Under the pieces are notes generated by a model, which saw only the letters and a program-made list of their open reading frames with translations, was not told the DNA's origin and made no database searches. From an uncultured Clostridia bacterium (GTDB lineage: Bacteria > Bacillota > Clostridia > TANB77 > CAG-508), in contig CAKPCG010000006.1 of the NCBI GenBank assembly GCA_934141475.1, forward strand, positions 601 to 64,600: a stretch of 64,000 nt of DNA. Direction: 5' to 3'. The first letter of the stretch is position 1. The number at the start of each line of letters is the position of its first letter. This document shows, piece after piece, positions 7,868 to 28,060 of the stretch. Made by a program: the position numbers and the translations under genes.

Positions 7868-7888
7868 TTTTTTATTCTCCTCTTATAT

Positions 7889-9403: not shown

Positions 9404-9443
9404 ATTTTTCCTCCAATATTTATATTTTTACATGCTTATTCTA

Positions 9444-10317: not shown

Positions 10318-10364
10318 AAAAAATCTCCTCATTTGTTATTATTTGATTATAAGTCAATTTTATT

Positions 10365-11235
10365 CTATTTAAATTCATTTAATATCTCATTATAATTTGT
10401 AACCAAATTTGCTCCTTGTTTTATTAATTCATTTGTTCCAAAAGAATTTTCTGAATTTATGTTACCGAGGTATTACAAAAACTTCTTTTCCTTGTTCTAA
10501 CGCAAAATCTACAGTTATTAGTGTTCCACTTTTTTGCTTTGCTTCAATTACTAACACGCCTTTGGCAATTCCACTTATTATTCTATTTCTTGCTGGGAAA
10601 TTCATTTTTTCTGGTTTGGTTCCTATTGGATATTCTGAAATTATTGCACCATTTTTCTCTATAATTTTTTGTGCTAAATTGTAATTTTCTTTTGGATATA
10701 TTGTGTCTAAACCATTTCCAAGTACTGCTGTTGTTATACCATTTGCACATATTGCACCAAAATGGGCATAACTATCTATCCCTCTTGCTAGTCCACTTAC
10801 TATATTAATATTGTTTTTTGCTAATTTATAGCTAAATTCCTTTGCCATTTCTATTCCGTATTTAGTGCAGTCTCTACACCCTATTATTGCTATACTTTTT
10901 AGGTCAAATATTTTTTGGTTTCCTTTAATGTAAACACATATTGGTGGGTTGTAAGTGTTTTTTAGGTCTAGTGGATAGTTTTTATCTAAAATTGATATTA
11001 TTTCAATTTTGTTACATGTTATATATTTTAGATGATTTTTTGCAGTTTGTTTGTGTTTTACGTTTAGTATTTCTTGTATTATTTGATTATTTATTAGTTC
11101 GATTCCCTTTAAATCATTGTAACTTGCATTGAATATATTTTTGTTGTTTTTTAATCTTTTTATTAGATTTAAGTATCTTTTTACTCCTAGTTTTGGAATT
11201 AATGTTATCCATATTTTATAATATTTTTCTTCTAT
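10365..11235 (-). CDS. dprA: DNA-processing protein DprA/Smf, +1 break at CGG, no canonical start codon
   Basis: Motifs GLARGIDSYAH, FPARNRIISG and VIEAKQKSGTLIT. The 0-frame reads cct CGG taa (CGG at 10467-10465). The +1 frame gives GNINSENSFGTNELIKQGANLVTNYNEILNEFK* (stop at 10365-10367), restoring the family PGNI motif. The upstream frame is open to TAA at 11251-11253 with no ATG/GTG/TTG. RBS AAAGGAGAGG lies 5 nt before ATA at 11235. Confidence 0.8.
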
Positions 11236-11374
11236 GTTATCCTCTCCTTTTTATATGCAAAAAAGCAAAGAGAATAATTAAAAAATTATTCTCTTTGCCC
11301 CTTAAGCTTTGTATATAATAACATTTTTTTGGATATTTAGCAATATATTTATGCACATTTTTTTACTTATTCTA

Positions 11375-14300
11375 TTATAAATTTACATCTTTAAGCTTTC
11401 TAAATTTTATGTACATCACTGTTCCTACTAAAATAATTACAATTGTTATTAGTATAAACACTTTTTTAGAAAATCCTGTTTTAGGTAATATTTTATTATT
11501 AGACTTACTGTTGTCATTATTTGCTGATAGCTGTTCTTTATTTGTGCTGCTTGTGTCATTATTTTTTATTATTACACTATCATCGTCATATTCATCGTCG
11601 TCATCATCACTTTCTTCTGGTCTTACAGTTATATTAAATGTTGCTTTCTTTTCTTTATATATTACAGTAATTGTTTGTTCTCCTGTCTCTTCTGAATTGT
11701 AGCCTTGAATTGATACATCGTCTTCATCCATGTCTATTTCTTCAGATTCTCCATTTTCATATACTACCTTTATTTTTCCTCCTGTTACATCTAAGTCGTC
11801 GTCTATTTCATATATTAATTTTTCTGGGACCTTAGATATAATTATTTCTTCTACATCATTTTTTACTTTTACTTTATATGTTACAGTCTTTTTACCATAT
11901 GTAATTGTAATTGTTTGCTCTCCAAGTGTGTCTTTATCATATCCTGTTACCATATCTTCTGTTATGTCTATTTCTTTTGATGTCTTATCTTCATATATTA
12001 CTTTTAATTTTCCACCTTCTAAACTTAATTTTTCACCCTTTATATATATTGTTTTTGAAGGTATATTTTCAAGTTCAATTTCATCTACATTATTTTTTAC
12101 AGTTATTTTAAATGTTTCAGTATTTTTGCTATATGTAACTGTAATTGTTTGTTCTCCAAGTGTATCTTTATTATATCCTGTTATCATATCTTCTGTTATG
12201 CTTATATCTTTTGTTGTTTTGTCCTCGTATGTTACTGTTATTTCTCCCCCTGTTAAATCTAAGTCTTCACCTTTTATATATGTTGTCTTTGTAGGTTCAC
12301 TTTTTAATTTTATTCCAACTACTTCGTTTTTTACTACTATATTAAATGTTAATTTTTGCTCTGCATATGTTATAGTTATTAATTGCTCTCCTAATGTATC
12401 TTTGTTATAACCTGTTACCATATTTTCTGTTATATTTACATCATTTGTTGACCCATCTTCATATGTTACTGTTATTTCTCCTCCTGTTAAATCTAAGTCT
12501 TCACCTTTTATGTATGTTGTTTTGGTAGGCAAGCTTTTTATTTTTATTCCTGTTATATCATTTTTTACTGTTATTTTAAATGTTGTTGTATTTCCTTTTA
12601 ATGTTACAGTTAAAGTTTGTTCTCCTAGCATATTTTTGTCATATCCTGTTACCATATCTTCTGTTATTTCGGCATCTTTTGTTGTATCATCTTCATATAT
12701 AACAGTTATTATTCCACCTGATACATCAATTTTTTCACCTTTTATGTATGTTGTTTTAGTAGGTGCTTTCTTTACTTCGATTTTCTTTACGTCTTTTTCC
12801 AATACTTTTACATTACATGTAGCTTTTTTTGCTCCATCATCAGTTGTTACAGTTATTGTTGCGGTTCCTTCTGAAATAGCTGTTACCACACCATTATTTA
12901 CTGTTGCAACTTTTTCATTGCTACTACTCCATTTAACATTTTTGTTTGTTGCATTTTCTGGTAATATTGTTGCTGTTAAAGTTTGTGTTTTTCCTTCTTT
13001 TATTTCTAAATTTGTTTTGTCCAAATTTATTCCAGTTACAAATACTCCTGGTACTTTTATATCATATGTTATAGAATGCCCGTCGTGCTTAATTGTTATA
13101 GTAGAAGTTCCTGGACTTTTAGCAATTAGTTTACCATTTACAAATCTTATAACATTTTTATCTGATATACTGACATTTTTGTCATCTATTATGCTTTGAA
13201 CATTTTCCACTTTTTTCGATTGATATACTAACTGATAATTTACTTTTAGTTCTGTTCCTACAGTAATATTTTTGTTTTGGTCATCACTTCTAGATATTGA
13301 TTCAACAAAATCTAATGAACAAATATATTTCCACCAATTATTAAAATGTCCATCTTCATAATATCCTGTAACATGTGGAAATAGTGAAAGCCACCATCTT
13401 ACAAACATTCTATCTGAGCTCTTTTCTTCGTTTTTTCCTTGTAATTTATCTAGTTCTGTTTGATTCATCCATGCTGTATAATTTGTAAGTTCTTTTTTTC
13501 CTGTTAAGTTCGGATAATTTTTCCAATCTACCCATGTACTGTAAACACTCTTAGAATTTTCATAATCATATGAATCTTCCGCATTTGGTGGTAAATGGAC
13601 ATTTCCTACTCCTGCATAATCTCCAGTACAATTGAATTTACTTAATGAAAATTTTTCCCATAAATTTAATTTTTCATATTGCTCATCTGTTGTTACATCA
13701 TATCCGTCTTTGGTATAGTCTTTTTGTTCACCTGTATTTATATTAAATGCTCTTCTTACAACATTTTCAAATGCGTGACCCAAAGCATGCAGACTTGAGT
13801 CTCTCCTAGAAAAAGTAGGACTAAATATTATAAAATTAGGGCAATCTTTTTCTAACACCCCTCCATTTACAAAATATGGCGTTCTTCCAACCATCATGTC
13901 TTCATAAGCATCTGATGGATCTAATGAACATAACCACACTTGATCAAATTCTCCCGCATTTCTCTTGTTTACTAAATCATATTTTTCTAATAAATACTCA
14001 TAATCATATGTAAAACCTGTAGGGCTATATTTTCCTGAATATTCTTTATTCATAGCAAAATTATACCAGTCTCCCTTGTTGCTATTGTCTTTACTCCTAC
14101 TTCTTTCGATATATGTATTTTCATCAAAACTTTTTGCAGTTGTTGTATCATTTAAGTAAAATTCCTTTGTGTATTTTGGAAATTCATTTAATCTTTCTGT
14201 TTTTACTATATTAACGTCTAAATATCCGTGTGAAGAATATTCTAAATCTTCAACTAACTCATCTACCAGTGCTGTTTCACTCTGCCCAAACCAGTCTGTT

Positions 14301-14593
14301 ACCTTTGGATGATATCCATCATTATTAGGATATAAATTTTGATCTGTTATTGAATATAATGTTGGATTGATATTTATTACATATACCTTTAGTTCTTGTT
14401 TTTCTCTATTTCCATCTTCTTCTAAATTTGCATTACTAACTCTTAAAACCGAATCAGATTTAGAGTTATCTACTTTTGCATTTTGACTTGTATAATCGCT
14501 TGTTTTCGAGCTATTATATATACTAATTGCAAGTAATCCAATTATAAGAAAACTTAATAGTACCGAAACTATTATTATAATCTTTTTTCTCAT
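11375..14593 (-). CDS. LPXTG-anchored surface protein with Big_2 and six Ig-like repeats
   Basis: Start MRKKIIIIV at 14593 after AAGGAGG. Signal/TM, a ~480-aa uncharacterised N-terminal domain, one Big_2-like domain, six ~83-aa repeats (KTTYIKGEDLDLTGGEITVTYEDG...), an acidic stretch, then LPKTG + TM + basic tail. Confidence 0.8.
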   Translation of the reverse strand: MRKKIIIIVSVLLSFLIIGLLAISIYNSSKTSDYTSQNAKVDNSKSDSVLRVSNANLEEDGNREKQELKVYVININPTLYSITDQNLYPNNDGYHPKVTDWFGQSETALVDELVEDLEYSSHGYLDVNIVKTERLNEFPKYTKEFYLNDTTTAKSFDENTYIERSRSKDNSNKGDWYNFAMNKEYSGKYSPTGFTYDYEYLLEKYDLVNKRNAGEFDQVWLCSLDPSDAYEDMMVGRTPYFVNGGVLEKDCPNFIIFSPTFSRRDSSLHALGHAFENVVRRAFNINTGEQKDYTKDGYDVTTDEQYEKLNLWEKFSLSKFNCTGDYAGVGNVHLPPNAEDSYDYENSKSVYSTWVDWKNYPNLTGKKELTNYTAWMNQTELDKLQGKNEEKSSDRMFVRWWLSLFPHVTGYYEDGHFNNWWKYICSLDFVESISRSDDQNKNITVGTELKVNYQLVYQSKKVENVQSIIDDKNVSISDKNVIRFVNGKLIAKSPGTSTITIKHDGHSITYDIKVPGVFVTGINLDKTNLEIKEGKTQTLTATILPENATNKNVKWSSSNEKVATVNNGVVTAISEGTATITVTTDDGAKKATCNVKVLEKDVKKIEVKKAPTKTTYIKGEKIDVSGGIITVIYEDDTTKDAEITEDMVTGYDKNMLGEQTLTVTLKGNTTTFKITVKNDITGIKIKSLPTKTTYIKGEDLDLTGGEITVTYEDGSTNDVNITENMVTGYNKDTLGEQLITITYAEQKLTFNIVVKNEVVGIKLKSEPTKTTYIKGEDLDLTGGEITVTYEDKTTKDISITEDMITGYNKDTLGEQTITVTYSKNTETFKITVKNNVDEIELENIPSKTIYIKGEKLSLEGGKLKVIYEDKTSKEIDITEDMVTGYDKDTLGEQTITITYGKKTVTYKVKVKNDVEEIIISKVPEKLIYEIDDDLDVTGGKIKVVYENGESEEIDMDEDDVSIQGYNSEETGEQTITVIYKEKKATFNITVRPEESDDDDDEYDDDSVIIKNNDTSSTNKEQLSANNDNSKSNNKILPKTGFSKKVFILITIVIILVGTVMYIKFRKLKDVNL

Positions 14594-14737
14594 ATACATC
14601 CTCCTTATTTTTCTATGTAAAATTTTATCATATATTAGTTTTTCATTCAATTATATTTTTATTACATTTTTGTTACACTTTATATTTTTAACTATTTTAT
14701 TACTTAAAAAAAATAACAAAAATTAAAGATAAAAAAA

Positions 14738-14795: not shown

Positions 14796-15350
14796 TTATT
14801 GATAAAAATAGTCTATAATTCCATTATAAATTCCCCACGCTAATTTGTTTTGGTATTCGTCTTCAAGTAATAATTTTTCCTCATCTGGATTTGATAAAAA
14901 ACCACATTCTACTATTGTTGTTGGAATTTCGACATGTTTTATTATATATATATTCTCAATACTTTTTGCTATTCTACTATTTTCTTTTTGTATAGCATTA
15001 TTTAAGTTATTTTGTATCGAAACTGCCAGTCTTTGCCCTTCTTGGCTTTTTTCGTTATAAAATGTTTGCCATCCATCATACTGACTTTGTGGAATCTTAT
15101 TTAGATGTATTGATACAAATATATCTGCCGAGCTCTCATTTCCTATTTTTACTCTATTTCTAATGTCTGACACTTTTTTTTGCTTTAAGGTTTTACTGTC
15201 TAAGTCATATATAGCATTTTCATCTGAACGAGTAAGTATTACTGTTGAACCACTTTGTTCTAGCAAATTTTGAAGTTTTAGTGCTATTTTTAAGTTTGTT
15301 TGTGCTTCTGTTGTTCCATTACTACTTTCTGCTCCCTCATCTGGCACACC
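14796..15350 (-). CDS. cwlD: germination-specific N-acetylmuramoyl-L-alanine amidase CwlD, 3' segment of a split gene
   Basis: GVPDEGAESSNGTTEAQTNLKIALKL...VSIHLNKIPQSQYDGWQTFY...VECGFLSNPDEEKLL matches CwlD from just after the GH of the DxGHG motif. There is no start codon of its own. The 5' segment is at 24753..24917. Confidence 0.85.
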   Translation of the reverse strand, partial: GVPDEGAESSNGTTEAQTNLKIALKLQNLLEQSGSTVILTRSDENAIYDLDSKTLKQKKVSDIRNRVKIGNESSADIFVSIHLNKIPQSQYDGWQTFYNEKSQEGQRLAVSIQNNLNNAIQKENSRIAKSIENIYIIKHVEIPTTIVECGFLSNPDEEKLLLEDEYQNKLAWGIYNGIIDYFYQ

Positions 15351-15375
15351 ATGTCCGAGTATCTTCTTAACAAGG
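15351..15375. repeat. element end (att half-site) next to the cwlD 3' segment
   Basis: atgtccgagtatCTTCTTAACAAGG. The last 13 bp are the perfect inverted repeat of CCTTGTTAAGAAG at 24732-24744. Confidence 0.8.
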
Positions 15376-15378
15376 AGA

Positions 15379-16992
15379 TTATACTAATTTTATAATGTTC
15401 AATTCAATGTCAATATCTCTAGTATTAGTATCTGGGTCAAGTTTTCCTATCCAGACTTTATCAATAAACTCATCTACTATTTCTTTATTAAGTTTATCTA
15501 TATGTCTATACTTTTTAAATATTGCCTCACTGTTTTGAACATTATCTTCAATTTGTTCGACTTTTTTCAATTCTTCTTCTATTATACTTATTCTGCTTTT
15601 GTAATCTTCAATTTCTTTTAAAAATTTTTTTCTGAACATCATAAATTCTTTTGAAGAAATAATTCCTTCAATTTTATCTTCATATAATGTTTTATAATGT
15701 TCATTTTTCCTGTCTATTTTGCTTTGCAAATATTGTTTTTCTATTCTTAAACTTCCAATCCTTGTATATGTAGATTTATCTAATTTTCTTTTTTGAAGTT
15801 CATATTGTCTTTCCAACTTATTTAAACTGTAATACTTATCTAATTGTTTATTCAATTCGTCTAATATTATTTGTTCTAAAACATCACATCTAATTGACCT
15901 ATCATTTATACATTCTTCTTTTTTTATTCTTCTACCTTTACATTTTAAATATGCTGTTTTACCATCTTTTGTTTTATATAATTGCCTATTGAATACTCTT
16001 TTACATTCTTTACAATATGTTTTTCTACTTAACATATATGCTTCTCCTGTTGTTCTACAAACTCTGGCTCTTTCATCAAATCTTTTATGAATACAATTCC
16101 ATGTTTCCATATCAATTATTGGTTCGTGTGTTCCATAGCTATAAGTCCATTCTTCTTTTGGTTTCTTTATGCACTTATGATTTTTATAACTAACATAAGT
16201 CTTTTTTCCTTGAACTAAATTTCCTATATAAACTTCATTCTTTAATATAGTACAAATAGTATCCATAGTCCATTTTGTATGTTCTACTCCATTTTTCGCT
16301 TGTCTGCATTGGTATCTACTTCCATTTTGTTTTTTATAATTACTCGGTGTTAGTACACCCTTATCATTTAGATACCCTGCTATTCTGTGATAACCATATC
16401 CTTTCTTTGATAATTCAAATATCTCTTTTACTACTTCACTCGCAACTGGATCAATTAGTAATTTATTTTTATTATTAGGGTCTTTTATATAACCATAAGG
16501 TGCAAATGAGCCTAAAAATAATCCATCATCTCTCCTATTTTGAAGTGAACTTCTAATATTATCTGATAAATCTTCCAAATACCATTCATTTATCAAACCA
16601 TTTATTTGTCTTGCTTTTTTATTGCCTCTAACTTGTGTATCTGCATTATCTACTATACTAACAAAGCGAACTCCCCATTCTATAAATTTATTATGGATAT
16701 ATTTTTCTATAACTTCCATATCTCTTGAAAATCTTGATTGTGTTTTACAAAGTACAATATCAATTTCTCCGTTTTCACAATCTTTTAAAAGTTCGTTAAA
16801 TTTAGGTCTATTTATATCTGCACCAGAATAATCATCATCACTATATACATTGATTACTTCCCAATTTTTATTAAGTGCATATTTCAATAGCATACTTTTT
16901 TGATTAGCAATAGATTCACTATCATCACTTTTATCTTTCTTGAATCTATCTTCATCAGATAATCTACAATATATGCCAACTCTATTCCCCAT
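15379..16992 (-). CDS. large serine recombinase
   Basis: Start MGNRVGIYCRLSDED after AAAGGAGGG. Resolvase catalytic domain (RLSD...SRFSRD), recombinase domain, Cys-rich zinc ribbon (CKECKRVF...LKCKGRR) and C-terminal coiled coil. 537 aa, intact. Confidence 0.9.
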   Translation of the reverse strand: MGNRVGIYCRLSDEDRFKKDKSDDSESIANQKSMLLKYALNKNWEVINVYSDDDYSGADINRPKFNELLKDCENGEIDIVLCKTQSRFSRDMEVIEKYIHNKFIEWGVRFVSIVDNADTQVRGNKKARQINGLINEWYLEDLSDNIRSSLQNRRDDGLFLGSFAPYGYIKDPNNKNKLLIDPVASEVVKEIFELSKKGYGYHRIAGYLNDKGVLTPSNYKKQNGSRYQCRQAKNGVEHTKWTMDTICTILKNEVYIGNLVQGKKTYVSYKNHKCIKKPKEEWTYSYGTHEPIIDMETWNCIHKRFDERARVCRTTGEAYMLSRKTYCKECKRVFNRQLYKTKDGKTAYLKCKGRRIKKEECINDRSIRCDVLEQIILDELNKQLDKYYSLNKLERQYELQKRKLDKSTYTRIGSLRIEKQYLQSKIDRKNEHYKTLYEDKIEGIISSKEFMMFRKKFLKEIEDYKSRISIIEEELKKVEQIEDNVQNSEAIFKKYRHIDKLNKEIVDEFIDKVWIGKLDPDTNTRDIDIELNIIKLV

Positions 16993-17060
16993 AAGAGTTC
17001 CCTCCTTTCGTACAGAATAATACATAATAATTTATTATATTTGAAATGTGCTATTTACTT

Positions 17061-17216
17061 TATTCATACATTTGACATCCATGAGAGTCATCACTTTTTT
17101 CAAAGGAAATTATAAGTTTTAATAGTTTTGAATTGAAAATATCACTTAATTCTTCCTCATTTGTAGTATTTGCCTTTATTATTGTTTTCACATTATATGT
17201 AATTCCATCATTCACA
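17061..17216 (-). CDS. small ORF upstream of the recombinase (possible directionality factor)
   Basis: GTG start 9 nt after GAGGAGG; 51 aa (NDGITYNVKTIIKANTTNEEELSDIF...). Position only, no family recognised. Confidence 0.25.
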
Positions 17217-17259
17217 TTTCAATACCTCCTCAACTAATGTATATGAAAAATTTTTAAAA

Positions 17260-17667
17260 TTAACCCTCATTTTTTAAATCCAGGAAAAAATTTGTGAGTA
17301 TTATTTCTGTCTCTTGCATTGTCTTTCTTGGATGATGTGAATGTATTTCTGATAAAAATTCTTTTACTATTTTTTCGCTAGTTATTTGAATTTCTCTATT
17401 TATCAATACATAAAATATGCAAATTGCATAAGCTACAAAATCATCTGCTGACAAAACCCAAGAGAAATGTATTCTTTTCAGTAGGTTTGTATCTAGTCCT
17501 GTTATTTCTGTTGCATTTATATTTTCTTTTGCGACTTCCAATATATCTTTCAAAATATCTCCAAGTCCATTTTGTGCTTTATCTTGTTCATATCTTTTAT
17601 AACCTAAAATATAATAGACAACTGCCTCTTCTATTAAATATTCTTTATTTCTTATATCTTTTTTCAT
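17260..17667 (-). CDS. hypothetical protein (element-encoded)
   Basis: 135-aa ORF, same strand as the recombinase, no recognised motif. Confidence 0.45.
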   Translation of the reverse strand: MKKDIRNKEYLIEEAVVYYILGYKRYEQDKAQNGLGDILKDILEVAKENINATEITGLDTNLLKRIHFSWVLSADDFVAYAICIFYVLINREIQITSEKIVKEFLSEIHSHHPRKTMQETEIILTNFFLDLKNEG

Positions 17668-17765
17668 CTAAAAATCCTCCTAACATAAAAACAAGCCCTA
17701 TCTGGACTTGTCGTTTCTTTCTTTTAACTTTTTTTGTTCTTTTGTGTATTCTGGGTATCTTATTT

Positions 17766-18030
17766 TTACTGCCTCATAAAAATATGGTGCATAACTACAT
17801 CTGTTTTTCCATATTTCTGTAATACTAAATTCTTTTCTTCCCAAAATAATTTGTGTTCTTTATCTATAAATTCCATACTCGCTCCTTTCTAGTTCGTCTA
17901 ACCATATTTCAAATTCTTTGTAAGTTTTTTTACCATTTACTATATCTTCTAAAAATTTTCGTGTTGTAATTTTACATACTTGATAACTTTTCCTGTAATA
18001 TGAATTATTTGGGTGTCTTTTTACTAACAT
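17766..18030 (-). pseudogene. two short overlapping ORFs, probable remnants of element genes
   Basis: ORFs 18030-17860 (MLVKRHPNNSYYRKSYQVCKITTRKFLEDIVNGKKTYKEFEIWLDELERSEYGIYR) and 17876-17766 (MEFIDKEHKLFWEEKNLVLQKYGKTDVVMHHIFMRQ). Each has an RBS, but they are very short. Confidence 0.3.
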
Positions 18031-18472
18031 TCCTTTTCTGTATGTTAATAATCTCTGGAAAAAGTTTGAAACAATTATGATATTAAAATGCCCTTTATAT
18101 TCCAGAGATTTTTTATTTTTATATTATTTCTTAATAATTCATTAGACAGATGTTAGCAAAACATCTTCATAGGAATTTCACCTGCCAGAACTCTGACTTG
18201 TATTCATTGCGTGGGACGGTTTTATCTCGCTCGTTCTATGACTATACAAAAGTTTCTCCCCCTATAATTACTTATCTTCGCCTTATTAGGTGCTAACTAA
18301 TATTTAAGTATTAGCAATATTTTATATTACTTTACTAGCTCAAATAATCAAGGGCTGTATCTAATGAATTTGATATTCAATTTTCAATGTGCCTTTTATC
18401 TCTTTTTTAAAGAAAAACAAGTAAGAGATTTTACCCTCTCACTTGTTTCCTACTTTTACCCCTTATTTGTTG

Positions 18473-18973
18473 CTAGTGAATTAAAAAATTTTCCAATTTT
18501 TTTTGTAATTTTTTTATTCCTGCCTCTACACTTCGCTTTACAACTGACCTATGGACTTTTTCCATTTTTGAAATTTTTGAATATGTAAAGCCATCAACCA
18601 CATACATATATACTCTATGATTTTGTAGCTCTGGCAAATTCCATATTTCCCTTATAATTGTTGTTACAACTTCATTCTCAATTACTTGGTCTTCTATACT
18701 TGGACTTTTATATTTTGCTCTTTTGTTCAATGTATTTTCATTTAATACTGAATGTTCTATGTACTTGTCATATTTATTCTGTTGCGACTTGTCCTCATTT
18801 TTAGCTTTACGAAAAGCTATTTTTATATTACTTTCTACTCTTGTAAATTTTCTTTTGCCCATTACATCTTTAAAAGTTGCAATATGTTTTGTTTCATTTT
18901 CATTACTAAAAACTATATAAGATTCAAGATTTTCTCTTTTTATCTTGTATTCTTTTTTCATACCTTTCTCCAT
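18473..18973 (-). CDS. sigma-70 region-4-like HTH protein (ICE/transposon regulatory type)
   Basis: The C-terminal part (LPELQNHRVYMYVVDGFTYSKISKMEKVHRSVVKRSVEAGIKKLQKKL) resembles sigma region 4. Followed by a hairpin plus T-run at ~18414-18452. Confidence 0.55.
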   Translation of the reverse strand: MEKGMKKEYKIKRENLESYIVFSNENETKHIATFKDVMGKRKFTRVESNIKIAFRKAKNEDKSQQNKYDKYIEHSVLNENTLNKRAKYKSPSIEDQVIENEVVTTIIREIWNLPELQNHRVYMYVVDGFTYSKISKMEKVHRSVVKRSVEAGIKKLQKKLENFLIH

Positions 18974-19173
18974 TCGATTTGTTTTTGTTCAAATCGAATA
19001 GAGGTGGTCTTCATTTGGTAGTTTATAGTGCGAGTATTTCTATTTGAATCATTTTAATTAAAACGCAAAAAGGCATACTTGTAACTTTATCTAAAAATTA
19101 CAGTATGTCTTATTTAATCTCATTTTAATTAAACCTAAATAATCCATCTTTTCCTACTATTTTCTAAATACTT

Positions 19174-19368
19174 TCATTTGGTTTTTTCCTCATTTACATC
19201 GTGTTCAAAAGAACTCAAATACCTTTCCCATTCTACTAAATTTGCATTTTTATCTTTTAGATAATATTCATCAAGTTGTTTTCTCTGTTTTCCAAATTTT
19301 TTTATATCTTTTTTTGTAAATTCTAACAAATCAATAGTTTTACTTCTTTATAAATCAATACACAACAT
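19174..19368 (-). pseudogene. small element gene with in-frame TAA at codon 7
   Basis: AGGAGG + ATG at 19368; MLCIDL*RSKTIDLLEFTKKDIKKFGKQRKQLDEYYLKDKNANLVEWERYLSSFEHDVNEEKTK*. The TAA is at 19348-19350. Confidence 0.5.
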
Positions 19369-19877
19369 ATTTACCTCCTGTATCTTCTTTTTATCTATTG
19401 TACTACATTATTTTTACTTATTTTGTCGAAAATTGTAATATAAATAAACAGAATAAGTATTTGTTTACTGTTTCAAAATATTGTTCATATATTTGTTCCA
19501 GATCCTGCATAACTTTTATCATCCTTTGCTTATATGACGACTGAAATTGCAATTTGTTACAACTTTATACTAAACATTTAAAAATTTCTACTCAATAATA
19601 TAATTTTATTATGACTTTCTGTAAAACAGTTACTGTTCACAGCTTATAAATATCTTTATTTATCAAGGATTTTATAAGTATAAAATGAAAAATAGCTCGT
19701 TTCAGTGCTTTCTTTTATAAATGAATTTTTATCAAATTCTTGAACTACTTGTAAATACTAACTTTTTTGTTTGAAATCGGCTGTGAATTGTAACGGAATT
19801 TCTAAAAACCTTGTTACTGTATAATATTTTCTTTTTGTATAATAGCTTAACTGTATCACTATAGATAAATCAATTAA

Positions 19878-21077
19878 TTAGTTTACAATCTTTTGAGTAA
19901 TCATTGGTGTATTTTCAGTAATTCTTTCAAAATTATATCCATTATCTTTTCCATATCTAATAATATCTCTTAGTGCATTTAATGTTTTGGTATTTCCAGA
20001 AAAGTCATGCATTAGAACTATGTTATTCCTATTCTTTCTTATTCCTTTAGTTACATTGTTGTAAACTGCTTCTTTAGTTTTTACATCTCCTGAATCTCCT
20101 GAGGCTACATTCCAATCATAGTATTTATATCCTTTTTCCAGTAAATTTACTGCTAAATTTGTCATTATACCTGGATTAAATTTACTAACTGTGTTTGAAC
20201 TTCCTCCTGGAAATCTAATAAGTTTCGTATCTATTCCTGTACTTTCTTTTACTTTATTATTTAAGTTGATAAAGTTATTTAATCCATTTTCTAGTGATCC
20301 ATAAATATCCTTATAATTATGTGAGACTCCATGAAGTCCTATTGAGTGTCCTTCTTTTGCTTCTCTTTTTACTAATTCTTCCTTTTTATTATTATAATCT
20401 AATATAAAAAATGTAGCTTTTACATTCTCTTCTTTTAAAATGTCTAAAATATGTGGAGTAATGTCTAGGCTTGGTCCATCATCAAAAGTTAAATAAATTA
20501 CGCTTTCATTTTGCTTAGGTTTGTTTTTTATTAATATCCTCTCGTTTTTTGTTTCATTTCCTGAAGAATCTTTTACCTTATATATTATTTTATATTCATC
20601 TTCATTTATATTTTCTTTTTGAATTATTACATTGTTTGTAATATCTCCATCATAATTATCTTTTGCTACATATCCCATTTCTTCATATTCTTCATTTTCT
20701 TTTATATTTATAATTTTACTTCCTTTAAGTTCTAAGTTTGGTGCAATATTATCATTTACTTCTATATTTCTAGTTGCATATGGTTTATTATTTATACAAT
20801 AGTTTATATTATATTTTCCGACTTTTGATGTGTCAACTTCACCTTTTACTTGAATTTTATCATTTATTTCTTTTTTGTGTACTGTTGCATTTGCTCCTAA
20901 TTCCTTATATTCGCTTCCAAGTGTTAATGAAATATTACTGTCACCAATTAATTTAACTTGTGGCTTTTCCATAAAATAGCAAATTAATTTTATAGCTACT
21001 ACTATTAGTATTACAATTATTACTACCAAAATGATTTTTTTCTTGTTTATCTTTTTTATATTTTTTGCTTCGTTCAT
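19878..21077 (-). CDS. membrane-anchored polysaccharide (peptidoglycan) deacetylase, PdaV-like
   Basis: N-terminal TM, two Ig-like modules, then a NodB domain (IYLTFDDGPS...HSIGLHGVSH...RFPGGSS...VLMHD). Confidence 0.85.
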   Translation of the reverse strand: MNEAKNIKKINKKKIILVVIIVILIVVAIKLICYFMEKPQVKLIGDSNISLTLGSEYKELGANATVHKKEINDKIQVKGEVDTSKVGKYNINYCINNKPYATRNIEVNDNIAPNLELKGSKIINIKENEEYEEMGYVAKDNYDGDITNNVIIQKENINEDEYKIIYKVKDSSGNETKNERILIKNKPKQNESVIYLTFDDGPSLDITPHILDILKEENVKATFFILDYNNKKEELVKREAKEGHSIGLHGVSHNYKDIYGSLENGLNNFINLNNKVKESTGIDTKLIRFPGGSSNTVSKFNPGIMTNLAVNLLEKGYKYYDWNVASGDSGDVKTKEAVYNNVTKGIRKNRNNIVLMHDFSGNTKTLNALRDIIRYGKDNGYNFERITENTPMITQKIVN

Positions 21078-21091
21078 ACTATATCTCTTTT

Positions 21092-22000
21092 CTATTTTAA
21101 TATTTCAAATTCTGGTGTTCCCATATATCCAGCTGCTATTGAATATTTGTCAAAGATTATTACTGGATTTCCGTTTTTATTTATATAAAATGATTGATTT
21201 TCAGATATTCCATGGAAATAATTATCTTCTCCTCTTATATATTCATCATCTGGATGAAAGTATCTTATGTTTTCATCACTTTTTTCTTGTTCTTCAATTT
21301 GTTTATAAATTTGTTTATCTATGATTTTTTTATAATCTTTTCCTAATATATCTTCTAATTTAATTTCTTTTTCTGTTTCTAAATTATAATTATATGTGTA
21401 TATATCTTTACTACTTGTATTTAGTCCTTCTTCCTTAATTAAAATAAATGATAACATATTATCTTTATTATATTTTACTTCATAGTCAATTCTTATATGA
21501 TATTTTCCATATATTGAACCATTAATATTGTTTTTTCCTATTTCTGCTGCTATTTGGTTTGCAGATTTTTCTGTTTCATTTAATAAGTCAACAATTTTTT
21601 GTGCTATTTTATTATTTATCTTATTTTGCAAAATTTCATTATCTAAGTGTGCTACTTCTGGTATTTTGATATCTCTTTGAGAATTCTCTGTTTCGTCATG
21701 ATAATCTGCCCAAGTTAAAATTTCAGCGACCTTTCCTATTACCGGTATGTTTTTAGCTGTTTCTGCAAATGTAACATTTGTGTTTAGTAATACTATGAAT
21801 AAAAAGCAAAATGACATCGCAGTTGATAATATGATTTTGCTTTGTTTTGTCAATAACTTTTTATTTATTTTCTCTAATATGTTTTTATTTCTATTTTCTT
21901 TATTCCTCTCATATTCATAAATTATATTTTCTACCTTTTGATTTAACTCTTTTGGTATTTTAGTTGATTTATAAAAATTTTTTATTTTTTTAAAATTCAT
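21092..22000 (-). CDS. anti-sigma factor, RsiV-like (DUF4163/DUF3298 ectodomain)
   Basis: Short cytoplasmic N-terminus, one TM, then an ectodomain ending ..FDKYSIAAGYMGTPEFEI, typical of RsiV. Its start overlaps the stop of the sigma gene (22000). Confidence 0.75.
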   Translation of the reverse strand: MNFKKIKNFYKSTKIPKELNQKVENIIYEYERNKENRNKNILEKINKKLLTKQSKIILSTAMSFCFLFIVLLNTNVTFAETAKNIPVIGKVAEILTWADYHDETENSQRDIKIPEVAHLDNEILQNKINNKIAQKIVDLLNETEKSANQIAAEIGKNNINGSIYGKYHIRIDYEVKYNKDNMLSFILIKEEGLNTSSKDIYTYNYNLETEKEIKLEDILGKDYKKIIDKQIYKQIEEQEKSDENIRYFHPDDEYIRGEDNYFHGISENQSFYINKNGNPVIIFDKYSIAAGYMGTPEFEILK

Positions 22001-22503
22001 TATAATTCGTCCTTTCCTATTTTTATTTTTAATTCTTTTAAAGCCTTATATAGTCTTGTTTTTACAGTGCTTAGGTTAGAATTTGTAATTTTAGAAATTT
22101 CAGCTAAACTCTTATCTTCAAAAAATCTTAAAATAATAACAGTTTTTAGTTTTGGTTTTAGACTGTATATTGCCTTATATAAGTCCATTATATCCGTTAT
22201 TTCTTTATCTTTAAAATCCTCTGAAGAAAATTCATAATCTTGAATATTAAATATTGGCTCTTTTTTTTGTTTTTTTAGATATTTTAAACTTTCATTTATT
22301 GCTATTCTATATATCCAAGTTTCAAGATATTTTTCTTCTCTTAATTTTTCAAAATTATCTAAAGCTTTTACTATAATATTTTGTATTATATCTAAAGCTT
22401 GTTCTTCATCTTTAATATAACTAAACACTAGTCTATAAAGCTTTTCTTGATTTTTATTTATATATTGTATTATTTGCTGATTTCTTTTATCTAAATTTTT
22501 CAA
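22000..22503 (-). CDS. ECF sigma factor, SigV-like
   Basis: 167 aa with region 2 (LYRLVFSYIKDEEQALDIIQN...WIYRIAINE) and region 4 (RFFEDKSLAEISKITNSNLSTVKTRLYKAL). Confidence 0.85.
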   Translation of the reverse strand: MKNLDKRNQQIIQYINKNQEKLYRLVFSYIKDEEQALDIIQNIIVKALDNFEKLREEKYLETWIYRIAINESLKYLKKQKKEPIFNIQDYEFSSEDFKDKEITDIMDLYKAIYSLKPKLKTVIILRFFEDKSLAEISKITNSNLSTVKTRLYKALKELKIKIGKDEL

Positions 22504-22751
22504 ATTTTTCTCCTCTTTCTTTGGCTTACATTTATTAGATATTTTTCTTTATAAAAAAGTTTGTTTTTTTTATTTATTTTTTATTTATTTATTATACTTC
22601 AATATTATAAATATTCATATAGTTATATATTTTTTGCTATACTTATAGATAAAATTTTATTTTTAATATATTACAATCTAAATTTCAATTTTAATATTTT
22701 AATTTAATGCCAATTTATCACTGTATAATCTTTTTTCCAGATGTACTTCAA

Positions 22752-23067
22752 TGAAAAGAATCAAATCAAAATCTATCATTGCTTTATGTTTATCTTTAGT
22801 TATGTGCTTCCAATGAATCAGGTTACCATAGAACGGTCAAACTTCAATAGCGACACTAGTATAGTGGTTGGTATCTTTAATAGTAACGGCACACGTGTTA
22901 TGGACGATATGTGGTTTACTGGAAACGGAAAAAAGGAAAATATTTCAATGACAGTTCCTGGTGCATTCATAAATGGTGGAACTTATACTATTAAGTATAA
23001 TATTTATCATGGAGGCACAACTCCTCTCGCTGGTGATGATGGCTGGATTGGTGTTTGGATTTACTAA
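22752..23067 (+). pseudogene. frameshifted small secreted protein
   Basis: A signal peptide, MKRIKSKSIIALCLSLVMCFQ*, lies in one frame (ATG 22752). The mature part (..PMNQVTIERSNFNSD...GWIGVWIY) lies in the next frame. The break is not at a CGG. Confidence 0.4.
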
Positions 23068-23117
23068 TCTTTGAGCCTTACTAATTTAGTTTAGTTAAAA
23101 AGACATCCTACATTGGA

Positions 23118-23150
23118 CTAAAGCTCTCACTTGAAAGCTTTAGTTTTTTA
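23118..23150 (+). terminator. rho-independent terminator
   Basis: ctaaagct-ctcacttga-agctttag followed by tttttt. Confidence 0.7.
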
Positions 23151-23309
23151 TATAAAAAGTTTTCTAAATAAAATAAGAGTGAAATTTATTTTTATATTTT
23201 ATAAATTATTATATAAATATATTCTTTTCAGTTGGTATAGAGTTGGTTTTAAAAGGGATTTGTAAGGGGGAATTTTTAAAAAAATACTCCCACATTTTTG
23301 GACATACTC

Positions 23310-24083
23310 CTAGCGTACATACTCTTTCCTTTTTTCCTCCCTTTGATTGTGTTCTTCAATGCACTTGATTACAAAATCTTCTGCTTGTTTTTCAGTTATT
23401 ATATATTTGGGGAGTACCTTATTTATTCTTTCTGCACTAAATTTTATATGCTCTTTTTGGTTAGGTTTAGGCTGTTGCATTATTTCTTCAATTTTTTCTG
23501 TTGTCAATCTTCCCTCTTGACTCAATTTTTTCAAATATTGTGCCTATGATAATGTCGGTGTTGCCTCATCATATTCATATATATTGAGTATGATATATTG
23601 TTCATCATCTTTTAAATATGATAATTCTACTGCTGGGCTAAATGATATACGCTCATCATCTACTAGTATTAATAATTCTGGTATTAGTTCAGTTAGTCTA
23701 ATGTATCTATACACTGTATCTTTGCTTTCTCCGAATTCATTTCCTATTTTCTTTGCTGTTCTTTCCTCATTCAACTTTGTCGCAAGTTGCGACGAAGTTA
23801 AATCCGTTCTTTTTCCTTGATGTTTTTGTGCCTCTAACTTCATTTTATACGCAAATGCTTTTTCACTAGGTAGTATCTTTTCTCTTTGCATATTACTATC
23901 TACCATTTGAATTATTGCCTCATCATCTGTTAAATTCCTTATAATACACGGAAGTTCTTTTATTTGTGCTAGTTCACTTGCTTTTTTTCTTCTATGTCCA
24001 GATATAATTTCATAATTGACATCACTTCTTTGTCTTACAATTAAAGGGTGCATAAATCCCTCTGTTTTTATGCTTTCTGTCAT
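23310..24083 (-). pseudogene. ParB/Spo0J-like protein (ICE/plasmid type), N-terminally deleted, in-frame TAG
   Basis: ISGHRRKKASEL...MQREKILPSEKAFAYKMKLEA...; in-frame TAG at 23544-23546 (..PTLS*AQYLKKLSQEGRLT..), where family members have Gln. Confidence 0.75.
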
Positions 24084-24107
24084 TCCTTTGGCTGATAAAT
24101 AATGTGC

Positions 24108-24545
24108 TTATACTGGTATTATTACACTATCACTACTCGCAAGAGCATTAAGAGTAATCATACTTAATGACGGTCTACAATCAATTATTACATAATCGTA
24201 TTTGTCTTTAATTTGGTTTAGGTAACTTTTCAATATAAATTCTCTACTCATTATATTTACAAGTCCTAGTTCTATTGTTTCTAAATCAATATTAGACAGA
24301 ACTAAATCCACTCCCTCACTATGATGTAAAATTGCTTCATCTTCTTTTATTGGAATATCTTTTATTACTTTGTTTAATACATCTGCTAATGAATTCTCTA
24401 ATTCGTCTTGATTTCTCCAGCCTAAACAAGTTGTCAAATCTCCTTGTGGATCTGCGTCAACAAGTAATACTTTCTTTCCATTTTTAACAAGTCATACTCC
24501 TAAATTTAATGCTGTTGTAGTTTTACCAACTCCTCCTTTCGTCTT
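24108..24545 (-). pseudogene. ParA/Soj-like ATPase remnant
   Basis: [35 protein letters not shown]... with TGA at 24492-24494. The N-terminus is missing. TAA at 24108-24110 falls in ..IIPV*AHYLSAKG, and the frame then fuses to the ParB-like sequence (internal deletion). Confidence 0.75.
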
Positions 24546-24731
24546 TTATTTAGTCATTTAAAAATGACTATGTTACTTCGCTGATATGTATAAAACAAAT
24601 AAAGCAAGTTGCTTTTATACAACCTGCTTATCTGTAATCTCTTTCTTTATGCTTAACTCTCTTTTCTTTTTAAAAACACAAAAGAGCCAATAATTCAATC
24701 GACTCTAATGTTTTATTCAATTTTAATTTTA

Positions 24732-24755
24732 CCTTGTTAAGAAGTATCCTTGATG
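24732..24755. repeat. element end (att half-site) next to the cwlD 5' segment
   Basis: CCTTGTTAAGAAGtatccttgATG. Inverted repeat partner of 15363-15375; the ATG is shared with 15351-15353. Confidence 0.8.
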
Positions 24756-24917
24756 CCCAGCATCTATTATTATTGTTTTTCCTGATGCTGGCAAACTTAC
24801 TGTTGAAATATAGCCATTTTGTTTTTCGTTTGTCTCACTAGTTAAAAAGAATATGAAAATTGATAAGAATATACCTGATAAAATTAATGTTATTCTTTTT
24901 TTGTTTAATATAATCAT
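24753..24917 (-). CDS. cwlD: CwlD, 5' segment of the split gene (55 codons)
   Basis: MIILNKKRITLILSGIFLSIFIFFLTSETNEKQNGYISTVSLPASGKTIIIDAGH, then reads into the element (QGYFLTR*). Signal anchor and the LPxSGKxIxIDxGH motif match CwlD. Confidence 0.85.
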
Positions 24918-24982
24918 AAAAACCTCACTTTTTGTTTTTGGTAAATTATATTCATTTTGCTTAGTTTTTATGATTTTAAATT

Positions 24983-26449: not shown

Positions 26450-28060
26450 TTATTTAGAAATTTTTTTATTTTTATTTAATATTTTTATTTCTTTTAGTGA
26501 AATTATTCTTAAAATTACTATTAAAACTATATATATTAAAAGACTTGCAAATAGTGTTAATATTATAGACAAATAGCTATTTTTTATACACTTTGCATTT
26601 TGGTATATTAAACTTGATAATGTTATCATTATAATTGTTGCTATAAATGGTTTTATTATAACTTTTTTTATATTCAATTTAATTTTTATGTTTTTGTTAA
26701 GTATAATTATTCCTATTGTAAATGCAACTATATTACATACTATATTTCCAATTATAGCTCCATATATTCCTATCTTTGGATTTGGTAGTAATGTTATATT
26801 AATTACTAATTTAAATATCATTCCAATCCCGAATGCAATTGCTGGTACACCCACTTTTCCTATTGCTTGAAGTATTCCATTTATAGTTTGTGCTAGAATC
26901 ATAAATATTATAGATATACTACTTATTTTTAAATACATACTACCTTCCATAGCATTTGGAAATAATACCATCAATATTTCTTTAGAATATACGTACATGA
27001 TTGCTGTAATTGGAAATGCAATTAAAACACTCACCAAAATAAATATTTCCGATTTTTTTCTTACTTCTTCTATTCTTCCTTTTGCCATTGATTTAGAAAT
27101 ACTTGGAACCAGTGCTGTTACAAATGCTATATTTAATGAAAATGGTAAACTACATAAGCTGTCTATTTTTCCACTTAATATTCCATATTGAATTTTTGCT
27201 TCTTCTTCTGTTAAAAATCTTTTTAGGTATCTTACAATTGTAAATGAATCTATATTTTTATTAAATGATGATATTAAACTGCTTATTGATATAGGCATTG
27301 CAACTGTTAATATTTTTTTTAATGTTTTTCTTATTCTAGTTGGTTTGTAATTTACTGTTTCTGTGATTTCTTGTGCTATTTCTCTTCTTTTTAATCTGTA
27401 ATACATATATATGTATATAAAACTTGTAATTGTTGCAACTGTAGTTGCAAAATTTGCAGAAGCAGACATTATTTCTGTATTGTTTTTACCAAGTATAATA
27501 ACTATTTCTACTAAAACTATTGTAAATACTGTTTTAAATATCTGTTCTACAGATTGCGATTTAGCAGTTACTGAAAAGTTTTGTCTTCCATTAAAATATC
27601 CTCTTACAACAGATGTAATTGATACAAAAAATATTGATGGAGAAAGTGCAATTAGTGAGTATTTTGCCTCTGGTATTTGTAAAAACGCATTTGCTATTTT
27701 TTCTGCACCTAGAAATAATAAAATAGAACCTACTAAGCCTATAAATGCAAATGTAACAAATGCTATCTTAAAAATTTTATGTGCTCCTTTATTATCTCCT
27801 ATTGCTAATCTTTCAGAAACTAAATATGAAATTGCATTGGGAACACCAGTAGATGAAAATGTAAGAAGTAATGCGTATATTTGAAATCCACTACTATAAA
27901 TAGCGTTTCCTGCATCTCCAAATCCTTGTTTATTTGTTAAATATAATTTATATATTAGTCCTATTACCTTTATAAAAATTTGTGAAATTAATAATGACAT
28001 AATTCCTTTTATTATTCCCTCTTTTTTATTTTCCATAAAAATCGCTAAACCCCTTGACAA
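26450..28060 (-). CDS. spoVB: MOP-superfamily flippase, SpoVB/polysaccharide-biosynthesis type
   Basis: ~530 aa, about 14 predicted TM helices, N-terminal LISQIFIKVIGLIYKLYLTN pattern typical of SpoVB/MurJ-like proteins. The start is uncertain (TTG 28060 or ATG 28036). The symbol is tentative. Confidence 0.65.
   Translation of the reverse strand: MSRGLAIFMENKKEGIIKGIMSLLISQIFIKVIGLIYKLYLTNKQGFGDAGNAIYSSGFQIYALLLTFSSTGVPNAISYLVSERLAIGDNKGAHKIFKIAFVTFAFIGLVGSILLFLGAEKIANAFLQIPEAKYSLIALSPSIFFVSITSVVRGYFNGRQNFSVTAKSQSVEQIFKTVFTIVLVEIVIILGKNNTEIMSASANFATTVATITSFIYIYMYYRLKRREIAQEITETVNYKPTRIRKTLKKILTVAMPISISSLISSFNKNIDSFTIVRYLKRFLTEEEAKIQYGILSGKIDSLCSLPFSLNIAFVTALVPSISKSMAKGRIEEVRKKSEIFILVSVLIAFPITAIMYVYSKEILMVLFPNAMEGSMYLKISSISIIFMILAQTINGILQAIGKVGVPAIAFGIGMIFKLVINITLLPNPKIGIYGAIIGNIVCNIVAFTIGIIILNKNIKIKLNIKKVIIKPFIATIIMITLSSLIYQNAKCIKNSYLSIILTLFASLLIYIVLIVILRIISLKEIKILNKNKKISK

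Follow-up and report, generated by a model that had tools for sequence, protein, structure and literature searches.

A serine-recombinase element splits the sporulation amidase gene cwlD in an uncultured Clostridia bacterium and is predicted to restore it by excision

Introduction

Developmental rearrangement has been demonstrated for few sporulation genes (sigK, spsM, spoVFB, spoVR, gerE and yabG). The skin element interrupts sigK, with SpoIVCA as the recombinase in Bacillus subtilis and CD1231, together with the recombination directionality factor (RDF) CD1234, in Clostridioides difficile. In SPbeta (SprA/SprB; spsM), vfbin (spoVFB), vrin (spoVR) and yin (yabG), a sporulation gene is likewise reconstituted by a serine recombinase (PMC4191935, PMC5499854, PMC10747680). 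In gerE of Bacillus cereus ATCC 10987, the gin element is a small, non-prophage, site-specific recombination unit (PMC5595907). Here, a stretch of 64,000 nucleotides from an uncultured gut Clostridia bacterium (contig CAKPCG010000006.1, positions 601 to 64,600; the 64-kb window) was analyzed, in which the sporulation amidase gene cwlD is split by a 9,402-bp element encoding a large serine recombinase (LSR).

Muramic delta-lactam synthesis in the spore cortex starts with the CwlD amidase. The cwlD gene of C. difficile depends on sigmaE and is under mother-cell control, and its deletion lowers germination by 2-3 logs (PMC6021603, PMC3789822). The best overall explanation for the locus in the window is an integrative element that is excised by its LSR and rebuilds cwlD during sporulation, most likely in the mother cell. 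We assign this reading a probability of roughly 0.7.

Results

The cwlD gene is interrupted at a zinc-ligand codon

The gene, which by its control in C. difficile is a mother-cell sporulation gene (PMC6021603, PMC3789822), is interrupted within its coding sequence after codon 55, at the zinc-ligand His of the motif D-A-G-H-G. The locus comprises the following parts.

24753..24917, minus strand: cwlD 5' fragment, 55 codons from the membrane anchor to ...IIIDAGH, collinear with intact orthologues and with an intact allele of the same species
15351..24752, minus strand: intervening element, 9,402 bp, with every long open reading frame (ORF) co-oriented with cwlD
14796..15350, minus strand: cwlD 3' fragment, 184 codons plus stop, reading GVPDEGAESS...IIDYFYQ
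24945..24973, minus strand: candidate sigmaE-type cwlD promoter, TCATAAAA-N14-AATATAAT, 28-56 nt 5' of the start codon
24602..24706, minus strand: two intrinsic-terminator-like hairpins inside the left end of the element, 3' of the truncated cwlD 5' ORF (consensus scan only)

Joining of the two fragments gives 720 nt encoding 239 amino acids (aa). Across the junction, the joined protein aligns with positions 1-173 of the 174 in Pfam Amidase_3. Its score on NCBIfam TIGR02883 (spore_cwlD) is 226.2 bits, which exceeds the curated equivalog cut-off of 221.55; the 3' fragment alone, from His to stop, reaches 211.7 bits. The coordinates, reading frames and in-frame join given in the first-pass annotation, which had been made from the sequence alone, were exact to the base. 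Its description of an element of this size with an intact 537-aa LSR at one end was likewise borne out by four Pfam domains and an aligned catalytic serine. In the interrupted state, the 5' ORF (start 24917, minus strand) reads MIILNKK...LPASGKTIIIDAGH and continues for seven codons of element sequence to a stop at 24729. The hairpins may stop read-through from the cwlD promoter. No second cwlD-like sequence was present in the 64-kb window.

Of 77 related species, 34 have the pattern ATAWW-N12-16-[CA]ATAYAWT at a fixed distance 5' of cwlD, compared with 1.8 expected from shuffled sequences, and the window sequence does not differ between strains with the occupied and the empty site. The sigmaE consensus consists of an ATA -35 element and a CATA-type -10 element (PMC3789822). 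Judged by the B. subtilis and C. difficile forms of this consensus, the motif is probably a sigmaE-type cwlD promoter in the window and throughout the clade.

The element ends resemble serine integrase attachment sites

The attachment sites were placed as follows.

24728..24767, minus strand: attL, with host arm ...GATGCTGGG, core CA at 24755-24754 (bases 1-2 of the His codon) and element arm TCAAGGATACTTCTTAACAAGG
15339..15378, minus strand: attR, with element arm CCTTGTTAAGAAGATACTCGGA, core CA at 15353-15352 and host arm TGGTGTGCCAGAT

On the gene strand, attL reads ATAGATGCTGGG-CAT-CAAGGATACTTCTTAACAAGG and attR reads CCTTGTTAAGAAGATACTCGGA-CAT-GGTGTGCCAGAT, and their ends carry a 13-bp terminal inverted repeat (CCTTGTTAAGAAG / CTTCTTAACAAGG). 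The predicted attB is GATGCTGGGCATGGTGTGCC and the predicted attP is GATACTCGGACATCAAGGATAC. For 15 elements of 3.9-11.3 kb, both ends could be located, and all of these elements join in frame. Because attL and attR of five of them have only CA in common, the crossover dinucleotide can be assigned to bases 1-2 of the His codon. Serine integrases require a non-palindromic crossover dinucleotide, and CA is non-palindromic. The sites thus show what is expected of an LSR: they are short, have imperfect inverted arms and a non-palindromic 2-bp core, and join seamlessly without target duplication. Base composition did not mark the element (G+C ~26%, the same as in the flanks). A search for attL in relatives by the inverted repeat was successful in only 2 of 10 cases, and a search for ORFs ending at D-x-G-H found more; in many relatives the element exceeds the 10-kb flank or the contig ends first.

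Empty and occupied sites coexist in one species

The first-pass annotation had suggested a survey of related genomes for uninterrupted cwlD. In a scan of one genome per species, restricted to the best 80 loci (CwlD 70-88% identical), cwlD was uninterrupted in 80 of 80 related species, and the site reads GAY-GCN-GGN-CAY-GGN. A protein search with the joined CwlD returned two metagenome proteins, one with a single difference (S180N) and the other 99% identical. Their contigs (L121 and L122) carry the neighbor genes of the window and an intact cwlD with exactly the predicted junction GATGCTGGGCATGGTGTGCC. Since their flanks are 98.5-99.3% identical to the window, these contigs represent other strains of the same species and not excision products of the window strain. 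Precise excision restores the ORF in silico, and natural empty-site alleles carry the junction it predicts.

Independent assemblies from ~14 samples of several studies (among them ERZ4560209, ERZ28616226 and ERZ27287320) contain the occupied form at 99.6-100% identity, and the empty site was found in two samples. The occupied strain is marked by single-nucleotide variants, for example GAG instead of GAA at cwlD codon 60. The element is polymorphic within the species. A chimeric contig that joins unrelated DNA within cwlD could be suspected only from the general risk of metagenome assembly, and scaffold gaps in two related contigs do mimic frameshifts. This explanation can be dismissed because the same junctions recur in these ~14 samples at such identity; in addition, the ends have the architecture of LSR sites, and the genome of an isolate, Marasmitruncus massiliensis (locus L157), shows the same arrangement. 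Apparent frameshifts in the LSR of locus L116 and in the cwlD 3' part of L125 coincide with scaffold N-gaps and were rejected as signs of decay.

Split cwlD genes remain under purifying selection

Across the LSR clade, all 29 CwlD-type 3' parts are open from the His codon to the normal C-terminus (172-205 aa), with no premature stop or frameshift, and pairwise dN/dS values between split cwlD genes range from 0.04 to 0.17. The most informative pair consists of M. massiliensis, which is described as spore-forming (PMC9584879), and L159, from a metagenome-assembled genome (MAG) of a sister species.

7746-11613 of locus L157: element of M. massiliensis (NZ_FYDE01000005.1; L157 corresponds to record positions 1894602-1916173), with the predicted attB ...ATTGATGCAGGGCATGGTGGGTATGAC...

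The same 3.87-kb element occupies the same site in both loci, which share 91% identity across 11.2 kb. The dS values of the element genes (0.26-0.46) match those of the flanking host genes (0.30-0.37), which argues for vertical co-divergence and not for recent independent acquisition. Between the two species, the cwlD 5' part has 9 synonymous and no non-synonymous changes, and the 3' part has 32 and 6 (omega 0.042), giving 41 synonymous and 6 non-synonymous changes for the whole split gene. Omega was 0.11 for the LSR and ~0.06 for flanking housekeeping genes. In the species of the window, comparison of cwlD with the empty-site allele gives 8 synonymous changes and 1 that is non-synonymous, and among occupied strains of this lineage the 3' part shows 4 synonymous and no non-synonymous changes.

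We argue from these comparisons that the split cwlD genes remain functional, as the pattern is unlike that of a permanently broken gene. Open fragments, low dN/dS and co-divergence would be hard to explain other than by regular, precise excision that spares the germline, and it is very likely that such excision restores a functional cwlD. The opposite possibility is plain insertional inactivation, in which cwlD is dead and the loss is tolerated because sporulation or germination is dispensable, or because another amidase or a second cwlD compensates. It could draw on the fact that excision was not directly seen (searches for attP and circular forms were empty; see below). Some hosts also appear to tolerate loss of an amidase, as further insertions have often truncated the amidase-LysM genes that this clade targets, and a paralogue lies beside one interrupted locus (L083). 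We consider inactivation improbable, because none of the 29 CwlD-type fragments is damaged, because the selection on cwlD in L157/L159 is indistinguishable from that on flanking housekeeping genes, and because the LSR is itself under purifying selection and the cwlD promoter is unchanged. Moreover, M. massiliensis forms spores (PMC9584879), and no assembly occurred twice among the 80 best cwlD loci.

The recombinase and a small partner ORF

The two genes at the right end of the element are the following.

15379..16992, minus strand: LSR, 537 aa, intact, with the Pfam domains Resolvase, Recombinase, Zn_ribbon_recom and DUF4368
17060..17215, minus strand: 51-aa ORF directly 5' of the LSR gene, candidate RDF

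The catalytic serine in YCRLS aligns with the catalytic-serine motif of TnpX and the TP901-1 integrase. The gene is located at the element edge, with its stop codon 28 nt from the cwlD 3' part. An upstream ATG would give a version of 548 aa, which is not on record in the collection; the 537-aa version is on record. In the collection, 14 contigs encode the identical 537-aa protein, and each of the six contexts shown was the same cwlD locus. Identity to proteins of the phage and plasmid collections was at most 42%, and identity to TndX was ~30%.

A homologue of the small ORF (42-52 aa; ..YNV...FN.KLLK.II..EK..) is present immediately 5' of the LSR gene in the window and in 10 of 10 close relatives. 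It is still recognisable in the minimal 3.9-kb elements of L157 and L159 (dN/dS of the small ORF, 0.30), which apart from cargo contain no gene other than this ORF and that of the LSR. The 51-aa protein had no family match in Pfam, NCBIfam or PHROG. By position, size and co-conservation, the 42-52-aa protein is probably the best RDF candidate, comparable to SprB, Skr and CD1234 (PMC5499854, PMC5025042, PMC10747680).

Gene content of the element

The remaining genes of the element are the following.

24063..24512, minus strand: ParA (AAA_31) remnant, Pfam positions 45-147 of 177, without the N-terminal Walker A region and the C-terminus
23325..24083, minus strand: ParB remnant, N-terminally truncated, in two ORFs, Pfam ParB_N positions 31-94 of 95
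22000..22503, minus strand: SigV-like ECF sigma factor (cargo), Pfam Sigma70_r2 and r4, NCBIfam SigV 159.1 bits (cut-off 190)
21092..22000, minus strand: RsiV-like anti-sigma factor (cargo), PdaC and DUF3298, NCBIfam RsiV 176.5 bits (cut-off 250)
19878..21077, minus strand: polysaccharide/peptidoglycan deacetylase with Ig-like domains (cargo), Pfam Polysacc_deac_1 and Bact_surface_Ig-like
18473..18973, minus strand: 166-aa protein with a sigma-70 region-4-like helix-turn-helix (backbone), with sigma-factor matches in NCBIfam and PHROG
17260..17667, minus strand: 135-aa ORF (orf135), also present in the closest relative, L081 (68% identity)

The ParA remnant aligns with residues 41-190 of 294 in the intact ParA of the related element in L084, and the two ParB ORFs align with residues 66-314 of 317 of the L084 ParB. 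The 166-aa protein is homologous to proteins of 113-226 aa in related elements, and orf135 had no Pfam, NCBIfam or PHROG match. The first-pass annotation had described most backbone genes as decayed. This applies to the truncated ParA and ParB and to a missing MazF gene; the sigma/anti-sigma/deacetylase cargo, orf135, the 51-aa ORF and the LSR are intact. A MazF/PemK toxin gene is located near the LSR in most relatives (L081 8983-9348; L084 9021-9479; L085, L086 and L094), and the corresponding ~420 nt of the window (17678-18097) are unrelated sequence with short ORFs only.

The cargo forms an intact operon (19878-22503, minus strand). SigV and RsiV are the best matches of its regulators, both under the curated cut-offs, and the best NCBIfam match of the deacetylase is a peptidoglycan GlcNAc deacetylase. 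The layout, with the deacetylase adjacent, is one that we take to resemble csfV-rsiV-pdaV of C. difficile. Its similarity to lysozyme-resistance modules suggests a role in lysozyme resistance. A cortex-amidase gene is here interrupted by an element that itself bears a peptidoglycan deacetylase. The cargo differs in related elements, with ABC transporters in L084 and a radical-SAM enzyme plus a repeat peptide in L087. In the M. massiliensis pair (L157 7840-9702, L159 2720-4579), it consists of ORFs of 320 and 294 aa, both under strong purifying selection (omega 0.05-0.07). By eye these resemble a ThiF/MoeB-type enzyme and a PP-loop ATPase. Such housekeeping-looking genes are unexpected in an element that would be excised from the DNA of the mother cell.

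No phage structural, packaging or lysis genes were detected in the element with Pfam or PHROG; the only PHROG matches were the integrase, the sigma-like regulator and one marginal hit at E = 0.008. Relaxase, coupling protein and type IV secretion genes were absent among the scanned or read ORFs of the window element, L081, L084 and L087. Judged by its genes, the element is non-phage and not prophage-like.

The LSR clade targets a catalytic motif

The ten closest LSRs in species-representative genomes are 64-87% identical to that of the window, and all ten genes have the sequence CA(T/C)GG(N)GG, which encodes His-Gly-Gly of an amidase, ~25 nt past the stop codon. A profile-based scan added 78 further LSR loci at 43-55% identity. 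At 51 loci with related LSRs, an Amidase_3 fragment begins at the His codon without an in-frame N-terminal part, and 29 of 52 such fragments, window included, are CwlD-type (TIGR02883 match at E <= 1e-35 on the fragment alone). Related elements thus occupy this codon of cwlD in ~28 other species. The hosts include 'Clostridia', Acutalibacteraceae, Oscillospiraceae and Ruminococcus MAGs, 'Bacilli' MAGs and the cultured type strain M. massiliensis Marseille-P3646 (CSUR P3646 = CCUG 72353). The other fragments mostly belong to amidase genes with LysM domains and without a signal peptide.

Loci L135 and L136, from separate MAGs, have LSRs 54-55% identical to that of the window and near-identical attP arms (...TTTTTGGGTATAACAGGTGCCAGC / CCGAGTTTG(G/T)ATAAACCCAATG). 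The target in L136 is a CwlD-type gene, whereas that in L135 is a different amidase without a signal peptide, so that the LSR would recognise the motif and not the gene. Going by these arms, one element lineage has its attB in paralogous genes. Between L081 and the window, the LSRs share 84% identity and the CwlD fragments only 72-74%, and closer host species lack the element. The LSR clade is, by this comparison of identities, horizontally mobile.

Several further observations concern the targets. The amidase-LysM 3' fragments end again after ~85 aa, just past the second zinc-ligand motif NH(L/I)NAGG (L082 11682-11939, L085 3067-3330, L086 11655-11906; also L137, L142, L144, L147 and L156). 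In L086, a second LSR of only 32% identity follows ~900 nt further on (12796-13899), and in L082 a methyltransferase/restriction-like block lies beyond the truncated fragment. These amidase genes appear to have been hit twice, at two different catalytic motifs. Locus L083 has an intact amidase-LysM paralogue (7981-8847, minus strand; 44% identical) ~1.2 kb downstream of the interrupted copy on the opposite strand, which may explain the tolerance of this host to the insertion.

In a sister LSR subclade (~44% identity), directly behind the recombinase gene lies the C-terminal portion of a gene of the manganese-catalase family, which begins at ..IAAEQKAR.TYDNILRL (Pfam Mn_catalase positions 147-197 of 284, Pfam-checked for two loci). 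The fragment was read at L184, L190, L192, L199 (Anaerotruncus colihominis JM4-15) and L212, and the downstream motif, in the first 70 nt only, at L191, L198, L202, L204, L209 and L211. This putative CotJC-like gene looks like a second sporulation-type target of the same recombinase superfamily. In another subclade (45-48% identity), from 'Bacilli'/Tenericutes MAGs (L090, L162 and L196), the sequence behind the LSR is a fragment of an ABC-transporter ATPase. It begins at ..QRVALIRTLA, just past the position of the ABC signature motif; L161, L168, L171 and L183 have this fragment further downstream. This suggests a third conserved motif that serves as attB.

Probable timing and cell type of the predicted excision

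Several results weigh against a developmentally timed excision that rebuilds cwlD. A pattern scan of the gene strand revealed no sigmaE-, sigmaK- or sigmaG-like motif 5' of the small ORF, orf135 or the LSR gene, and sporulation promoter motifs (sigmaE, sigmaK, sigmaG/F) in the element were at or below shuffle expectation. The first-pass annotation had advised a search for sporulation-type promoters or an RDF 5' of the recombinase, and only the second has a conserved candidate. The exact attP junction (AAGAAGATACTCGGACATCAAGGATACTTCTT) gave 0 matches in JGI metagenome contigs, a null that is uninformative because the species was seen only in ENA and Logan data. Look-ups of the exact LSR and ParA remnant proteins yielded no circular-form or attP contig; all contexts were integrated or intra-element. 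The strongest evidence for selection comes from a relative pair (L157/L159) with an LSR only ~45% identical to that of the window. In the lineage of the window the counts are small, and two of the four variable sites are shared with the empty allele, which recombination could explain. A second cwlD may be present elsewhere in the genome, outside the 64-kb window. Finally, amidase-LysM genes are split in small-genome 'Bacilli' MAGs (one chromosome of 1.34 Mb) whose sporulation is doubtful, so that insertion into a sporulation gene is not universal in the clade.

Three signals were set aside in these searches. A CATATACA motif 23 nt 5' of the small ORF was not counted as a promoter, as it has no matching -35 element. 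A scan for sigma-70 promoters gave 69 matches compared with 76.7 expected, showing no enrichment. Some contigs end close to the junction, L134 at 24727 and Logan contigs at 24867-24911; these positions lie off the att site and were not used as an attP signal.

The missing promoter and the possibly non-sporulating hosts would also fit a non-developmental excision, stochastic or induced in vegetative cells for transfer or as a switch resembling phase variation, after which only cured cells make germination-competent spores. Horizontal mobility and the existence of empty-site strains point in the same direction, and the yabG element of Clostridium botulinum is excised in all growth phases (PMC10747680). 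Under such a regime, however, the element would vanish at each spore-mediated transmission, yet it has co-diverged with its host over a dS of ~0.3 and is the majority form in the species of the window (~14 occupied samples versus 2 empty). We regard non-developmental excision as unlikely, although it is the less remote of the alternatives that leave the assembly intact. Excision in the mother cell follows from two observations taken together: CwlD is needed, according to the selection data, and the element is kept in the germline, according to co-divergence, so that repair would be expected in the cell that supplies CwlD and not in the spore chromosome. That excision occurs specifically there is probable, at a confidence clearly below that for restoration of the gene itself.

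Neighboring genes

Other sporulation-type genes of the window are a SpoVB-like flippase (26450-28060, minus strand; best match TIGR02900 at 219.7 bits, below the cut-off) and a partial SpoVK-like AAA protein (2686-3402, minus strand), which are consistent with a spore-forming host. Directly 3' of cwlD lies a repeat-rich ORF of 1,091 aa (11375-14650, minus strand), for which the collection gives 1,072 aa. It has a membrane anchor at the C-terminus and contains DNA repeats of 75-79% identity. Big_2 and Big_3 domains are on record for this gene on related contigs.

Discussion

The following mechanism is proposed. The attB of the LSR clade would be the DNA of the zinc-ligand motif D-x-G-H-G-G in Amidase_3 genes, and strands would be exchanged at CA in its His codon. 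In growing cells cwlD would be broken at no cost because the gene is sporulation-specific, and the host may benefit from the SigV/RsiV/deacetylase-like cargo. During sporulation, the LSR would recombine attL with attR, probably steered to excision by the 42-52-aa protein, releasing a 9.4-kb circle and restoring the 239-aa cwlD behind its sigmaE-type promoter. This would most likely take place in the mother cell, while the forespore chromosome retains the element.

On a wider scale, we lean somewhat toward the view that an undescribed LSR clade in gut Firmicutes uses mother-cell-only genes as safe harbors, namely cwlD in ~29 species and a CotJC-like Mn-catalase gene in the sister subclade. These elements would be inherited vertically and excised in the mother cell in each generation with the aid of a new RDF family of 42-52 aa. 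Because attB is a catalytic-motif codon, the same element lineage could also hop between paralogous amidase genes and bacterial classes.

The first-pass annotation was not aware of cwlD as a described target, in agreement with the literature searched. A full-text search for cwlD together with an intervening element, serine recombinase or prophage excision, of incomplete coverage, returned no description, and accounts of known intervening-element targets do not mention cwlD. In a Firmicutes-wide survey of sporulation genes, the interrupting elements reported are those in sigK only, and the main text makes no mention of cwlD (10.1101/2022.02.25.481979). New here are cwlD as target, the LSR clade, the candidate RDF family and their wide distribution; intervening elements as a kind are already known.

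As a gene that decides spore germination, cwlD would add to the short list of developmentally rearranged targets. The element family extends across dozens of mostly uncultured gut species, including one cultured spore-forming type strain. Recombination tools could come from an LSR clade whose attB is short and defined (..GAY-NNN-GGN-CA|Y-GGN-GG..), together with its candidate minimal RDF, and the SigV/RsiV/deacetylase-like operon would be an example of accessory cargo carried without vegetative fitness cost. For annotation, cwlD will be scored as missing or pseudogenised in these genomes though it is probably functional.

Comparison with known systems

The first-pass annotation had likened the locus to skin and SPbeta as a domesticated element. 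The position of the LSR at the edge, the repair in silico and the empty sites in the same species agree with this kinship. As a whole, that reading holds for the architecture and probably for the function, and is too narrow on what the element is. 'Domesticated relic' is too strong, because the clade is large and horizontally mobile, splits non-CwlD amidases and is polymorphic within the species, and the element is not a prophage. It is better described as mobile, harmless by target choice and long-lived in some lineages.

Like skin, the cwlD element carries its LSR at the edge, just 5' of the 3' fragment of a mother-cell gene; for spoIVCA, this position is reported in the survey cited above (10.1101/2022.02.25.481979). 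In both, excision restores an ORF (in cwlD, by prediction), the content varies except for the recombinase, and the element is retained in the germline. Unlike skin, the element targets cwlD, belongs to another LSR clade (nearest to the TnpX/TndX type with DUF4368) and has no phage genes. Its candidate RDF of 42-52 aa is unrelated, no sporulation promoter was found, and excision is predicted only.

With SPbeta, vfbin, vrin and yin it shares the reconstitution of a sporulation gene by a serine recombinase, the setting of direction by a small RDF (in cwlD, a candidate), strain polymorphism and a conserved attB where the element is absent. Those four are prophages or their relics, whereas the cwlD element has plasmid-like or integrative and conjugative element-like ParA/ParB remnants and the SigV/RsiV/deacetylase-like operon, and its attB is a catalytic-motif codon common to a whole enzyme superfamily. 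The Tn4451/Tn5397-type elements (TnpX, TndX) have the same LSR domain set including DUF4368, are likewise small with accessory cargo, and excise as a circle, as is predicted for the cwlD element. In contrast to these, the LSR of the window is only ~30% identical, is restricted to the CA of the amidase His codon, and is accompanied by no mobilisation gene that could be found. The closest match in life style is gin, which is also a small, non-prophage, site-specific recombination unit and resembles the cwlD-type elements of 3.9-10 kb. The cwlD elements differ from gin in target gene and host class, and their clade is widespread (29 CwlD-type members), carries varied cargo and also occupies non-sporulation paralogues.

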